Below, piece after piece: positions 1-38,561 of a stretch of DNA of 38,561 bases. A program made the position numbers and the translations under genes. The DNA lies in the IMG/VR virus record IMGVR_UViG_2703718787_000016. One strand, given 5' to 3'. The number at the start of each line of letters is the position of its first letter. Positions within the stretch are counted from its first letter, which is position 1. The notes under the pieces were generated by a model. It saw only the letters and a program-made list of their open reading frames with translations, ran no database searches and was not told the DNA's origin. Source of the stretch: a virus. Its lineage: Duplodnaviria; Heunggongvirae; Uroviricota; Caudoviricetes.

Positions 1-480
1 TCATAGCGGCTGCCAGGTTATGGGTAACCACTGCCAGGCGGCACCGGGTTCCATCTGGGCCAGCTTCATGACATAACGCGGTTGTTGAGATAAAGCGTCC
101 AGCTTCGGCATTAATAAAGTTTGTGCGGCGTTATAAAAAACCGGTTCGAGATTCTTCGGCAGACTGGTCAACGTTTCGTTACGCAGCAGTTTCGCCACGC
201 CTTGTGGATTGATATAGAGCGGAACGATGCCATCAGTGGGTATTACATCCACCATTGCCGGGCGGGTTTTATTCAGTGTTTGCAGCGCGTTATTAACCAG
301 CGTGTCATCGAGGGAGAAAAGCAGCGTTTTGTTTTGCATCGCCAGCGACACGCGGAAAAAATAATCCGACATTAATTGATCGGGTTGCGCCGCCTGCGCT
401 TTCGGATACTGGCCGTATCGGGAACTCACTTCGCGACGCCAGATTTGCCCTTCGCCCTGCTGAGTCTGGCTTACCGGCAA
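1..480 (-). CDS. Host chromosomal gene, partial (5' end in window, 3' end beyond position 1); product not recognised
   Basis: Open frame on the minus strand running off the window edge. It begins with TTG at 480..478 preceded by an AAGG Shine-Dalgarno-like motif, with no in-frame ATG upstream before a stop at 537..535. It lies outside the prophage, left of the candidate att core. Confidence 0.45.
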   Translation of the reverse strand: MPVSQTQQGEGQIWRREVSSRYGQYPKAQAAQPDQLMSDYFFRVSLAMQNKTLLFSLDDTLVNNALQTLNKTRPAMVDVIPTDGIVPLYINPQGVAKLLRNETLTSLPKNLEPVFYNAAQTLLMPKLDALSQQPRYVMKLAQMEPGAAWQWLPITWQPL

Positions 481-34934: not shown

Positions 34935-36059
34935 ATGGTATTGCTGAACGGTAACACGGTTTATTCCCCCCTGAAAGAACTGGTGAAAATGCCTGATTTC
35001 AGCGTTTCACTGGACAGGGAGCAGGATAAAAACACACTTCAGGAACTGAATAACCGGGTGATATCGCTTTCCATGACAGACAACCGGGGGTTTGAAGCAG
35101 ACAGGGTCACTCTTGTGCTGGATGATGCCGACGGGCAGCTGGCTCTCCCCGGGCGGGGAACACACATCAGAGTCATGCTGGGATGGAAGGGAGAACCTCT
35201 GGTTGATAAAGGCACCTACATTGTTGATGAGGTCGCTCATGAAGGACCTCCGGAGCGGCTGACACTGAGTGCAAACAGCGCAGACTTCAGGGAGGAATTT
35301 AACGTCAAACGGGAAGTATCCTGGCACGACGTGACTGTTGAACGCGTGGTTTCCGCTATTGCCCACCGTTACGGACTGAAAGCCCAGATAAGCGATATGC
35401 TTATGGATATTGAAATCGATCATGCCGACCAGACGGAAGAAAGCGACATATCATTCCTTACCCGCATGGCTGATATGCTGGGAGCCATCACTACCGTCAA
35501 AAATGGCTGTCTGCTGTTCATTCTGCCGGGTGGCGGCGTGACAGCTGACGGGCGCCCACTCCCCTCATTTGCACTGGCACGCAGTGACGGAGACAGTCAC
35601 CAGTTCAGAATAGCCGATCGCCAGGCATACACAGGGGTGAAGGCGTACTGGCTGGATTTGAATCATGGCAAAAAGAAAGCCGTCAACATAAAAAAACGAA
35701 AAACTCACGCTGAAAAGAGCAGCAGCCGGGAAGGCAGCTACATGGAGGGGGCAGAAGGTAACGTGTTCGTTCTGAGAAAAACCTACCCAAATGAAATTGC
35801 TGCACAGCGCGCAGCTGCCGCCAGGTGGCAGCAATTACAGCGCGGTGCGGCTGAATTCTCCATCACGCTGGCCCGGGGCAGAGCGGAGCTTTACCCTGAA
35901 ATGCATGGCACGGTAACCGGCTTTAAAACCGAAATAGACAATCAGGACTGGCTCATTGCAAAAGTGGAACACAATATCGACGGAAGCGGCTTCACCACAA
36001 GGCTTGAACTGGAGGCAAGAATACCCGAGTGGATAGCCGAAAAGGAAAGCAATGGTTAG
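34935..36059 (+). CDS. D: Tail protein / late gene D, P2 gpD-like
   Basis: 374 aa from the ATG at 34935 (GGAGG Shine-Dalgarno motif), located immediately before ogr as in P2. Confidence 0.88.
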   Translation: MVLLNGNTVYSPLKELVKMPDFSVSLDREQDKNTLQELNNRVISLSMTDNRGFEADRVTLVLDDADGQLALPGRGTHIRVMLGWKGEPLVDKGTYIVDEVAHEGPPERLTLSANSADFREEFNVKREVSWHDVTVERVVSAIAHRYGLKAQISDMLMDIEIDHADQTEESDISFLTRMADMLGAITTVKNGCLLFILPGGGVTADGRPLPSFALARSDGDSHQFRIADRQAYTGVKAYWLDLNHGKKKAVNIKKRKTHAEKSSSREGSYMEGAEGNVFVLRKTYPNEIAAQRAAAARWQQLQRGAAEFSITLARGRAELYPEMHGTVTGFKTEIDNQDWLIAKVEHNIDGSGFTTRLELEARIPEWIAEKESNG

Positions 36060-36103
36060 AATGGCGACGAGTTCAACCCCAGTTCAGCCAGGGGGGTATA
36101 TCA

Positions 36104-36406
36104 ATGTTTCATTGTCCATTCTGCGGCGCATCTGCCCGGATCCGTACCAGTAAAGCCGCCAATGATACCGGCACCATCCGCTACAAATACTATCAGTGCA
36201 ATAACCTTGAGTGCAGCGCCACATTTTCAACAATGGAAAGTGTGCACAGAATTATTGGCCAGCCTCAGTTGATCTTCCACGATAAAGATATTCCACGGGA
36301 GACAATGCGCAAATCCCATCAGGGACGCAGTCAGTTAACGCTACAACTGGAGGATTGCGGTATGGCTTTAAAACCAGTACATTACGCGCGGGTGCCTTTC
36401 GGCTGA
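36104..36406 (+). CDS. ogr: Late transcription activator, Ogr/Delta zinc-finger family, with a C-terminal extension
   Basis: MFHCPFCGASARIRTS...YYQCNNLECSATFSTMESVHR matches the P2 Ogr Cys4 zinc-finger core; the ORF continues about 30 codons beyond the usual Ogr length into the first hok-locus repeat. Confidence 0.85.
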   Translation: MFHCPFCGASARIRTSKAANDTGTIRYKYYQCNNLECSATFSTMESVHRIIGQPQLIFHDKDIPRETMRKSHQGRSQLTLQLEDCGMALKPVHYARVPFG

Positions 36407-36540
36407 CGGCTGGAAGGAAAACCTGAAGGCCGGATGTGGAAAGGCCCCGAGTCAAACATATTGTTTAACCCGAGGCCCTAACCATTCCTACCCTAGACAA
36501 GTGGAAGGTTAGCGCCTCCCTGTAAAAGGAGTCAAGCGCT

Positions 36541-36681
36541 ATGCCGCAAAAAACGATCATCGTGAGCATTTTATGCTTAACCATGTTGTTGGCCATCTGG
36601 ATGATACACCGTTCGCCGTGTGAGTTCAGACTTAACATCATGTGGTCAGAATTTGCGGCGTTCTTGCAGTGTAAACAGTAA
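36541..36681 (+). CDS. hok: Hok/Gef-family type I toxin (46 aa), copy 1
   Basis: Translation MPQKTIIVSILCLTMLLAIWMIHRSPCEFRLNIMWSEFAAFLQCKQ. Shares the Hok family signature with HokA as I recall it (N-terminal MPQK, transmembrane segment, R-x-S-x-C-E, E-x-AAFL-x-CK). AAGGAG Shine-Dalgarno motif 10 nt upstream. Below the ORF-track size cutoff. Confidence 0.6.
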   Translation: MPQKTIIVSILCLTMLLAIWMIHRSPCEFRLNIMWSEFAAFLQCKQ

Positions 36682-36772
36682 GAAACCGCAGCGGGGGTGA
36701 AAGCCCCCGCTATCCGGTTGTCGGGTTCAGTCGATATGGCACCCCTTTCTCCATTGGATTACAGACGTATTT

Positions 36773-36796
36773 GCCCGCAATATGCGGGCTTTTTTG
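36773..36796 (+). terminator. Rho-independent terminator downstream of hok-like copy 1
   Basis: GCCCGCA-ata-TGCGGGC stem-loop followed by TTTTTT. Confidence 0.5.
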
Positions 36797-37012
36797 CCGC
36801 CCTCCCCCTAAACAGTTTCAACACTGAGCATTGCGCGCACAAAGGGAAATCAGTAGATTACACGTGGGTGCCTTTCGGCTGACGGCTGGAAGGATTACCT
36901 GAAGGCCGGATGTGAAAAGGCCCCGAGTCAAACATTTGTTTAACCCGAGGCCCTAACCATCTAACCTTCGCAAGTGGAAGGTTAGCGCCTCTTTGAAAAA
37001 GGAGCAAGCGCT

Positions 37013-37153
37013 ATGCCGCAAAAAACGATCATCGTGAGCATTTTATGCTTAACCATGTTGTTGACAGTCTGGATGATACACCGTTCGCCGTGTGAGTTCA
37101 GACTTAACATCATGTGGTCAGAATTTGCGGCGTTCTTGCAGTGTAAACCGTAA
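37013..37153 (+). CDS. hok: Hok/Gef-family type I toxin (46 aa), copy 2
   Basis: Translation MPQKTIIVSILCLTMLLTVWMIHRSPCEFRLNIMWSEFAAFLQCKP, differing from copy 1 at three residues; same Shine-Dalgarno context. Confidence 0.6.
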   Translation: MPQKTIIVSILCLTMLLTVWMIHRSPCEFRLNIMWSEFAAFLQCKP

Positions 37154-37246
37154 GAAACCGCAGCGGGGGTGAAAGCCCCCGCTATCCGGTTGCCAAAGGT
37201 TCGGTCGAAAGTAGCACCCTCACACGCAAGTCACAAAGAAAAACAA

Positions 37247-37278
37247 AGCCCGTAGCGTAAAAACTGCGGGCTTTTTTG
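37247..37278 (+). terminator. Rho-independent terminator downstream of hok-like copy 2 (possibly bidirectional with the convergent host gene)
   Basis: AGCCCG...CGGGCT stem followed by TTTTTT. Confidence 0.45.
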
Positions 37279-37286
37279 TTTCAAAG

Positions 37287-37305
37287 ATGGACATTATATG
37301 GACAC
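37287..37305. promoter_or_regulatory. Candidate integrase arm-type binding sites (P arm): two direct ATGGACA repeats
   Basis: ATGGACAttatATGGACAc, 17/19 identical to 589..607 at the other prophage end. Confidence 0.4.
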
Positions 37306-37320
37306 CTGAAAATAAATCCC

Positions 37321-37331
37321 TTTTATTTTCA
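37321..37331. other. Candidate attR core (ttttattttca)
   Basis: Near-identical to 527..537; contains the stop codon of the host ORF 37329..38561 on the minus strand. Confidence 0.3.
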
Positions 37332-38561
37332 GTTAATTAATCTCATGCAAAAACCGCCCGCAGGCGCTTTGCTTTCGTGCGCACCAATATTTTGCGTAAA
37401 CAGTTTCCCTGGCAATTGCGCTTGTTCGGCAGTGCCATCAAACTGACCGACAAACAGCGGGGTTTGCAATTTTGAGTCTTCATACCAGCACAGCCCCGCG
37501 GCACCGTCTAACGCCCCAGTCAGCTTGTCGTTTTCCTGGCTGATGTGCGAAAGCATCTCTTCGGCAATACCGTGTGAATACGGCACCGCCACACAGAAGC
37601 TGGCCCCGGCAGGCATACTGTTCCAGACCGGCGTAAAATCGAAACTGGCATCCACACTCGCGGATTCATCATTTAACGCCAGAAAGCTATGCCAGCCGTC
37701 GTTGCTCATTTCGAAACGCACTCCGGCAAAAGAAGGCATTAATCGCTGGTAGCCAAAACCCAGCAACCTGGCGCTGACCACGATGCGCTGGCGTACTGGT
37801 GTTTTTCCGGCAGTACGCTCTTCCAGACCGAAGCTGGCTTGCCAGCGTTTTTTGCCGCTCAACAAATCACCTGCGATCGCCGTGGCTTCGGTATCCTGCT
37901 GATCATCTTTAAACAACATATCCGTGCTGGAAAACACCAGCATCTTGTCCTGATAAGTCGCGAACATCAGGGCGTTATTGCCGTTATAGCGCAACTGATA
38001 AACAGGAATAGTTTCACTATTTATCTTGATGCTACTGATTTCCGTTTTGCTTAACTGGCTGTCGCTGGTAGCGGCAAACAACAATGGCTCCAGCAGTTTG
38101 CTTAAACCACTGCGCTGGATCAGCACCATATAATGTGAAAGATGGCCTTGTTTATCGTGCCACAGCGCTGCCTGCGCGGGCTGATCTAAGAGTGACGAAA
38201 AGAGCTTATCTTTCAGCGTGAGATCGTGTTCATAGACAATACGACGAATGCTGCCTTCAATGCCCAGACGATCGGCATGATTCTGATAATAGAAAACGAA
38301 ATCTTCGCTCAGAACATCGTGGAGAAACGGAATGGTGAGGAGATCTTTGGGAAGCTGGCTCAGAGAGTCGCTGTCGAGAAAGAGGTCCGGCTCATTGAGA
38401 TCGATTTGCAGATTGTTGTGCACCACCAGCGGCGACAACGTTTTTTCTGGCCCACTGCCAGCATATTGCAACGCCCAGACGCCAGCGGAAAGCAGTGCTA
38501 TTGCGCCAAAACCTACAAGACCATAGAACCGCCAGCCTTTCGCCTTTTTTTCACCACTCAT
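37329..38561 (-). CDS. Host gene: membrane-anchored protein of unrecognised family (410 aa), start at or beyond the window edge
   Basis: N-terminal signal-anchor-like segment (WRFYGLVGFGAIALLSAGVWAL), then a large soluble region; stop lies within the candidate att core, so the prophage sits at its 3' end. Confidence 0.7.
   Translation of the reverse strand: MSGEKKAKGWRFYGLVGFGAIALLSAGVWALQYAGSGPEKTLSPLVVHNNLQIDLNEPDLFLDSDSLSQLPKDLLTIPFLHDVLSEDFVFYYQNHADRLGIEGSIRRIVYEHDLTLKDKLFSSLLDQPAQAALWHDKQGHLSHYMVLIQRSGLSKLLEPLLFAATSDSQLSKTEISSIKINSETIPVYQLRYNGNNALMFATYQDKMLVFSSTDMLFKDDQQDTEATAIAGDLLSGKKRWQASFGLEERTAGKTPVRQRIVVSARLLGFGYQRLMPSFAGVRFEMSNDGWHSFLALNDESASVDASFDFTPVWNSMPAGASFCVAVPYSHGIAEEMLSHISQENDKLTGALDGAAGLCWYEDSKLQTPLFVGQFDGTAEQAQLPGKLFTQNIGAHESKAPAGGFCMRLIN

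Follow-up and report, generated by a model that had tools for sequence, protein, structure and literature searches.

Bacteriophage P2 encodes Ogr, a protein of 72 aa carrying a four-cysteine zinc ribbon (PF04606). The ogr gene closes the late tail operon, right after gpD and beside the attachment site. A terminator for ogr and the F operon is found 10 nt after ogr, and attP also lies right after the gene. In P88-like phages (Xuanwuvirus), Ogr has 86 aa and the gene order is gpD-ogr-hok, with a single hok unit whose promoter abuts the ogr stop codon. The paper describing P88 does not mention ogr or hok (PMC5285337). The hok genes themselves are best represented here by two described systems, R1 hok/sok and hokW-sokW of the Stx prophage Sp5. 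In both, a small Hok/Gef peptide of 51-52 aa is combined with a long structured leader, a tac-fbi pairing between the two ends of the mRNA, an antisense promoter inside the 5' coding region, and a terminator. hokW-sokW functions as a type I toxin-antitoxin pair and promotes the release of phage (PMC8621323).

The present analysis deals with the 3' end of ogr in a virus record of the Caudoviricetes (IMGVR_UViG_2703718787_000016). The whole stretch of 38,561 nt is called the window, and its right end is that of a P88-like (Peduoviridae), P2-like Escherichia coli prophage (RefSeq annotation, E. coli STEC2018-607). There, ogr codes for 100 aa and runs into the first of two hok units (Table 1). What emerges is a real but ordinary feature, namely a known activator carrying a tail from a known toxin cassette.

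Table 1. Coordinates of the features at the right end of the window, with the evidence used for each
Feature	Position	Strand	Evidence
ogr CDS, 100 aa plus stop, putative late-gene activator	36104..36406	+	ORF; PF04606; RefSeq WP_016237816.1
Ogr/Delta zinc-ribbon core, residues 3-51	36110..36256	+	Pfam; AlphaFold; cysteines read from sequence
Native C-terminal segment of the Ogr subfamily, residues 52-82 (...IPRETMRKSHQGRSQLTLQL)	36257..36349	+	homologue alignment; tblastn; hok-less loci
18-codon tail, residues 83-100 (EDCGMALKPVHYARVPFG)	36350..36403	+	alignments of hok units
hok-1 promoter (inferred), with 17-nt spacer	36355..36383	+	conservation
-35 box of hok-1, TTGCGG	36355-60	+	
-10 box of hok-1, TACATT	36378-83	+	
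hok-1 mRNA (inferred)	36390..36796	+	Rfam RF01794, PF01848, fold, terminator
5' GGGUGCC (tac-like) of hok-1, followed by the leader	36390-96	+	
hok-1 CDS	36541-36681	+	
fbi-like GGCACCC of hok-1	36748-54	+	
hok-1 terminator	36773-96	+	
Putative Sok-1 antisense promoter, TGGCCA-16-TAAAAT, 9/12, inside the hok-1 5' part	36568..36595	-	promoter scan
Chance ORF, 61 aa, from the hok-1 3' UTR into the unit 2 promoter and leader, ending ...DYTWVPFG-stop	36697..36882	+	ORF list
hok unit 2	36826..37280	+	repeats, Rfam, PF01848, fold, terminator
-35 box of unit 2, TTGCGC	36831-36	+	
-10 box of unit 2, TAGATT	36854-59	+	
+1 of unit 2	36866	+	
5' GGGUGC of unit 2	36866-71	+	
hok-2 CDS	37013-37153	+	
fbi-like GCACCC of unit 2	37214-19	+	
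Terminator of unit 2	37245-37280	+	
Putative Sok-2 antisense promoter, CTGTCA-16-TAAAAT, 9/12, same position as in unit 1	37040..37067	-	promoter scan
yfaA (DUF2138) N-terminal part, host gene cut by the prophage	37329..38561	-	PF09909 profile positions 2-404; RefSeq pseudogene

The prophage right end and its two hok units

From left to right, the genes at this end of the prophage are tail sheath, tail tube, gpD (ending at 36059), ogr, hok unit 1, hok unit 2 and, on the opposite strand, a remnant of yfaA. ogr is directly 3' of gpD, at the end of a P2-type late tail operon, and the order sheath-tube-gpD-ogr is that of P2. In P2 the terminator and attP come right after ogr; here, two hok cassettes lie in between. 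The right end of the prophage is marked by yfaA, with host homology starting at about 37363 (5326 genomes match from 37363 on). The prophage is inserted within this host gene, the C-terminal part of which (profile positions 404-560) is found on the minus strand at window positions 1-480, beside the integrase (582-1589). Related prophages occupy quite different sites: serS, flk, tamB/ytfP, and pgsA-uvrC.

The two hok units form a direct repeat whose period is 472-476 nt. Similarity is strong between 36371-36470 and 36847-36946 (88%) and between 36524-36720 and 36996-37192 (96%). A weaker similarity extends back to GAGGATTGCG at 36350, to be compared with GAGCATTGCG at 36826. A first-pass annotation of this DNA had proposed that the junction of the tandem units coincides with the 3' end of ogr, and the 5' boundary of unit 1 as drawn by this repeat comparison indeed falls there.

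Each unit carries a match to the Hok/Gef family (PF01848; 26.6 bits at 36541-36678 and 27.8 bits at 37013-37150, with a cut-off of 22). The RF01794 leader model matches, over its full length, positions 36390-36552 (43.9 bits, E 1e-7, model positions 1-157) and positions 36866-37023 (48.3 bits, E 7e-9), both scores being below the gathering score of 59. The predicted lowest-energy folds pair the 5' element of each mRNA with the corresponding fbi-like element, with z values relative to shuffled sequences of -6.5 for hok-1 and -10.6 for hok-2. In each predicted pairing, the 3' partner lies shortly before the terminator, as in the tac-fbi arrangement known for hok mRNAs. The Hok/Gef peptides, a candidate structured leader, the predicted pairings, a terminator and a putative antisense promoter in the 5' part of hok, where Sok promoters are located, make the units similar to R1 hok/sok and to hokW-sokW, and at the DNA level they are about 85% identical to the hok loci of Stx2 phages. 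Weak matches to the Rfam Thr_leader model at 37208-37352 correspond to the hok-2 terminator hairpin only and were set aside.

Some differences from the two described systems are also observed. Hok has here 46 aa, as compared with 51-52 aa, and the Rfam score stays below the gathering threshold. Moreover, there is no overlapping mok: in unit 1 (36390-36545) no ORF starts upstream of hok and overlaps it, and in unit 2 (36866-37017) the search for a mok frame returned only a 14-codon TTG ORF that is not conserved. hok has its own AAGGAG ribosome-binding site. Therefore, without mok and with this site, Sok control would have to act directly on hok translation, which departs from the R1 paradigm. 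All in all, both hok units look intact and resemble, without fully matching, the canonical R1 locus.

Extent of the additional C-terminal residues

The ogr reading frame starts with an ATG at 36104 and stops with a TGA at 36404-36406, the protein ending with ...KPVHYARVPFG. Its match to PF04606 (58.3 bits for a cut-off of 26.3) involves residues 3-51 and the whole profile (positions 1-47 of 47). The four zinc-binding cysteines, Cys4, Cys7, Cys32, and Cys37, form two CxxC-like pairs (C-x2-C-x24-C-x4-C) and are invariant in the homologue alignments, in a zinc ribbon like that of P2 Ogr. [quoted passage not shown] A search of the PDB for an Ogr structure found none and gave only weak matches to the NrdR zinc ribbon (E 0.04). 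In the AlphaFold model, computed from a shallow alignment of 5 sequences, the core is modelled with confidence up to about residue 48, and pLDDT is 80-88 over residues 1-40 and 69 over residues 41-50. The first segment below 50 begins at residue 49, and all values are below 50 for residues 72-100, the tail being predicted to be disordered.

The protein homologue search gave four clusters, and the wider family was covered by locus surveys. The closest proteins in a large protein database are two 100-aa proteins (P0001 and P0002, 62% and 59% identical, respectively), both ending with VHYARVPFG. A shorter form of 83 aa (P0003, 69% identical by BLASTP and 70% in the alignment) ends with ...HRGRLQLILEL. 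In tblastn searches against phage genomes, the nearest matches are the P88-like phages, whose Ogr is the closest among deposited phage genomes with about 50% amino-acid identity. These matches and many others in the Peduoviridae stop at query residue 82. In the homologue alignment, this is also where a conserved C-terminal motif, IPxxxFPxSH(R/Y)G(R/K)xQLxLxL, comes to its end.

The locus survey comprised 160 further ogr loci, 80 from species-representative genomes and 80 from IMG/VR. Subfamily members in which no hok was detected in at least 738 nt downstream (32 loci) have an Ogr of 79-84 aa ending with QLxLxx; they come from Citrobacter, Edwardsiella, Enterobacter, Pantoea, Erwinia, Brenneria, Serratia, Klebsiella, and other Enterobacterales. 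In the P88-type loci (71), hok is present and Ogr has 86 aa (70 loci) or 87 aa (1 locus), with PQN, SQN, PQD, or PKN as its last residues. hok is also present in the 9 loci of the L002 type, where Ogr has 83 aa and ends with QLILEL. Where the hok leader could be located, the ogr stop ends 44 nt (P88 type) and 38 nt (L002 type) before the hok +1. Finally, 13 loci encode tailed forms of 100 aa ending with ARVPFG, and a hok gene is downstream in 13/13 of them. The tail is seen in 0/32 of the hok-less homologues.

Residues 52-82 are accordingly the native C-terminal segment of an Ogr subfamily, common to hok-less relatives. Because these relatives end at the equivalent of residue 82, the real extension is the 18 codons of residues 83-100. 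The first-pass annotation had Ogr running about 30 codons past the conserved core into the first hok repeat. The protein does run into hok DNA, but over 18 codons and not about 30; a figure of 28-30 codons arises only if P2 Ogr is taken as the reference. P2 Ogr, with 72 aa as compared with 100 aa here, is devoid of the subfamily segment 52-82, and residues 83-100 here come from read-through into hok DNA. The comparison of homologues with and without hok loci had been proposed as the check that could overturn this view; with no tail in hok-less prophages and a hok gene at every tailed locus, it leaves the link between tail and hok standing.

The tail as hok-cassette DNA

Eight hok units from five genomic contexts were aligned. 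They are found after ogr in four lineages (window, L002, L008, and P88 types), as the second tandem unit in two lineages, beside ykgM on another E. coli chromosome, and after lom in an Stx phage. Invariance sets in at (GA)TTGC or ATTGC, and nothing is common upstream of this block. Within the block, the pattern is TTGC(G/C), a freely varying 17-nt spacer, TA(C/G/A)ATT, 6 nt, and then GGGTGCCTTTCGGCTGA. This conservation and the start of the Rfam model point to a hok-1 promoter and to a transcription start at 36390. The candidate promoter is 6 nt upstream of Rfam model position 1; it has 7/12 consensus matches and was not flagged by the simple promoter scan. On this alignment, all 18 tail codons are hok-cassette DNA; they would consist of 40 nt of promoter and of the first 14 nt of the hok-1 transcript, and the ogr stop would occupy positions +15 to +17 of the hok-1 mRNA. 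The idea, put forward at first reading, that the unit boundary reflects the original insertion point agrees with the aligned hok units, where the boundary is the place at which the cassette joins ogr. A further difference from R1 hok/sok and hokW-sokW is that the candidate hok promoter and the predicted first 17 nt of the transcript also code here for the upstream gene.

In every hok unit examined, this frame reads ...(V/I)(H/D/N)Y(A/T)(R/W)VPFG-stop, regardless of the upstream sequence. In units that ogr does not enter, the stop-free run before VPFG-stop varies from 11 to 66 codons, and its length is not conserved. The ...YARVPFG ending of ogr and the ...WVPFG ending of the ORF entering the second repeat, two observations of the first-pass annotation, were both recovered. 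The reading frame shared by the hok units explains why this chance ORF (36697-36882) has the same ending. The ORF gave no match in a Pfam search and was rejected as a gene, having no family match and an open-frame length that is not conserved.

One may ask whether the 18 residues alter Ogr itself, for example by affecting how stable it is, how it contacts the RNA polymerase alpha subunit or how it interacts with a partner, and are kept for that reason. The frame is open in four sequence variants of the spacer, and at least 28 complete genomes, together with several independent contigs, encode the 100-aa form, which would fit a tail under selection. However, the spacer codons of the 100-aa variants are unrelated (GMAL, APHV, ASQS, and SSQS) and unconstrained, whereas the promoter and leader bases are fixed. 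By our own arithmetic, a random spacer of 4-5 codons would anyway be free of stops about 80% of the time. The conserved residues of the tail (DC, K.VHY, and ARVPFG) sit on the -35 box, on the -10 box and on the 5' end of the transcript, that is on exactly those bases whose conservation is just as strong in places where this frame is not translated. Since the same DNA is present in hok units without ogr, the conservation reflects promoter and RNA, and not protein. The predicted disorder of the tail also speaks against a role in Ogr, as does the fact that 72-86 aa are enough for its relatives to work. P2 Ogr reportedly stays active when its C-terminus is truncated. Taken together, an effect on Ogr that would keep the tail in place is unlikely. 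Between lineages, DNA identity is 61-70% in the ogr core, 70-74% at the 3' end of gpD and 82-91% in the hok leader, the leader of P88 being 82% identical to that of the window.

Origin, frequency and possible consequences of the read-through

All four lineages have the hok cassette directly against the end of ogr; what varies is the junction. In P88, the ogr stop is a TAA located about 9 nt upstream of the -35 box, and there is no overlap. In the 83-aa lineage, it is a TGA located 3 nt upstream of this box. In the window, GAG GAT TGC comes directly after codon 82 (CTG) and ogr does not stop there; compared with that of the 83-aa sister lineage, the junction is shorter by 1 nt and also shows several substitutions. 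The best reading of these sequences is that a small change at the junction would decide whether ogr stops before the promoter or reaches +17 of the hok mRNA.

The frequency of each form was determined among 5426 complete E. coli genomes. A P88-type ogr, with its stop before the hok promoter, is present in 1193 genomes and the 83-aa type in 2 genomes. The 100-aa form of the window type is found in 12 genomes, and a second 100-aa type, 59-62% identical to it, in 16 genomes. In about 22% of complete E. coli genomes hok directly follows ogr, and about 98% of these hok-adjacent ogr genes stop 3-9 nt upstream of the hok -35 box. Within this very common ogr-hok arrangement, of which P88 represents the commoner form, the 100-aa form is rare. 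In nearly all P88-type loci surveyed, the hok cassette is directly downstream of ogr; some of the 1193 genomes have up to 3 copies of this ogr, and 9 plasmid records also carry it.

As most hok-adjacent ogr genes keep their stop, the tail needs an additional small junction change and not hok insertion alone. Tandem duplication was also considered as the cause of the tail and was discarded, lineages with a single hok (P0001/P0002) being tailed and a lineage with two (L002) being devoid of a tail. The first-pass annotation had held insertion or duplication of the hok locus responsible for the altered C-terminus of Ogr; the new end is indeed hok-locus DNA, but duplication is not its cause and insertion by itself is insufficient.

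The 1-nt junction indel that distinguishes the 83-aa sister lineage is of a kind that a sequencing error could produce and raises the question of whether the extension is an artefact, due to a frameshift in sequencing or assembly or to the decay of an ogr pseudogene in a dead prophage. Yet the identical 100-aa gene is found in 12 complete E. coli genomes and in one IMG/VR contig; the second 100-aa lineage, whose junction is the same, occurs in another 16 genomes and in over 30 contigs. Both the zinc-ribbon core and the native C-terminal segment are preserved, and the prophage still has its integrase, tail genes, and gpD. An artefact is hardly credible under these circumstances. As regards the direction of the change, outgroups favour 82-86 aa, and the two diverged 100-aa lineages have the same junction spacing. 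The 100-aa state could be ancestral in a sub-clade, the 83-aa form having regained a stop; parsimony requires two events either way.

The explanation that we prefer, with a probability of about 80%, is that a hok cassette came to abut ogr, that a junction change removed the ogr stop and that the tail is a passive by-product of this tight packing, with little or no effect on Ogr activity. In more detail, a hok/sok-type cassette sits directly against the 3' end of ogr, at the place where P2 has the ogr/F operon terminator. A small junction change in this lineage would have removed the stop of ogr, and the frame now crosses the candidate hok promoter until it meets a TGA, the first one in frame, at +15 to +17 of the predicted hok transcript, and gains 18 residues. 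No hok unit has an earlier stop in that frame of its promoter and leader, and any ORF that enters the frame from upstream would gain the ...Y-A-R-V-P-F-G ending. The conserved residues of the tail mirror the two promoter boxes (-35 and -10) and the 5' tac-like element, and its variable residues mirror the promoter spacer. The Ogr tail is probably neutral.

A simple terminator scan of window positions 36059-36796 found no terminator-like site between ogr and the hok-1 terminator (36773-36796), and the same scan of P88 (L016, positions 2261-2706) found none between ogr and the hok terminator. Because in P2 a terminator follows ogr and no terminator-like site was flagged here, read-through into hok-1 can be proposed. 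Transcripts of ogr and of the late operon likely meet no terminator before that of hok-1, so that the hok-1 sequence would form their 3' part. The hok terminator may double as the late-operon terminator, and hok RNA may be the 3' end of late transcripts.

Such read-through transcripts give room for a functional tail. Translation of ogr across the hok promoter and the 5' tac-like element would couple the activation or the silencing of hok to late expression. Ribosomes terminating at +17 would block the 5'-3' pairing that keeps the full-length hok mRNA inert; Hok would be made late in the lytic cycle and would aid lysis and phage release. The ogr stop is located inside the predicted 5'-3' helix of the hok mRNA, and no terminator-like site separates ogr from hok, as opposed to the terminator of P2. 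The related hokW-sokW is induced on prophage induction and about doubles Sp5 release (PMC8621323), and two diverged lineages both keep the 100-aa form. Against this, the ogr stop precedes the promoter in about 98% of hok-adjacent cases in complete E. coli genomes (1193 + 2 vs. 12 + 16), showing that the arrangement persists without overlap, and nothing in the tail is conserved beyond the needs of promoter and RNA. The rarity of the overlap among ogr-hok prophages argues against selection for coupling, and we regard a functional tail of this kind as very unlikely. The specific proposal that ribosomes at +17 melt the 5' tac-like helix on read-through transcripts and thereby switch Hok on or off in the lytic cycle is likewise very unlikely. 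If true, it would mean that a plasmid-type addiction module has been re-used as a timed lysis helper in a P2-like phage.

Several points of interpretation follow. The 100-aa proteins annotated as 'ogr/Delta-like' (WP_016237816.1 and relatives) correspond to a native protein of 82 residues plus 18 residues derived from the promoter of the neighbouring gene, and their ...VPFG ending is not to be taken for a protein motif. When an accessory cassette lies flush against the end of a gene, it can change the C-terminus of the encoded protein, and constraints on a promoter or an RNA can pass for protein conservation. It is unlikely that the tail itself matters. The ogr-hok adjacency, in place of the late-operon terminator of P2, may deserve experiment, given that hokW-sokW aids the release of Stx phage.

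Two minor observations concern the surveyed loci. Assemblies labelled Vagococcus sp., Planococcaceae MAG, and Bacillota MAG (L020, L040, and L079) contain P88-type or related ogr loci; they are most likely contaminated or contain mis-binned enterobacterial contigs. In two P88-type IMG/VR prophages, the hok cassette is partly replaced by unrelated DNA (L173:1700-2400 and L154:1700-2400), with breakpoints inside the hok -10 box (L173) and at the ribosome-binding site of hok (L154). Cargo exchange seems to be concentrated in the interval that separates ogr from the attachment site, which has the look of a hot spot.
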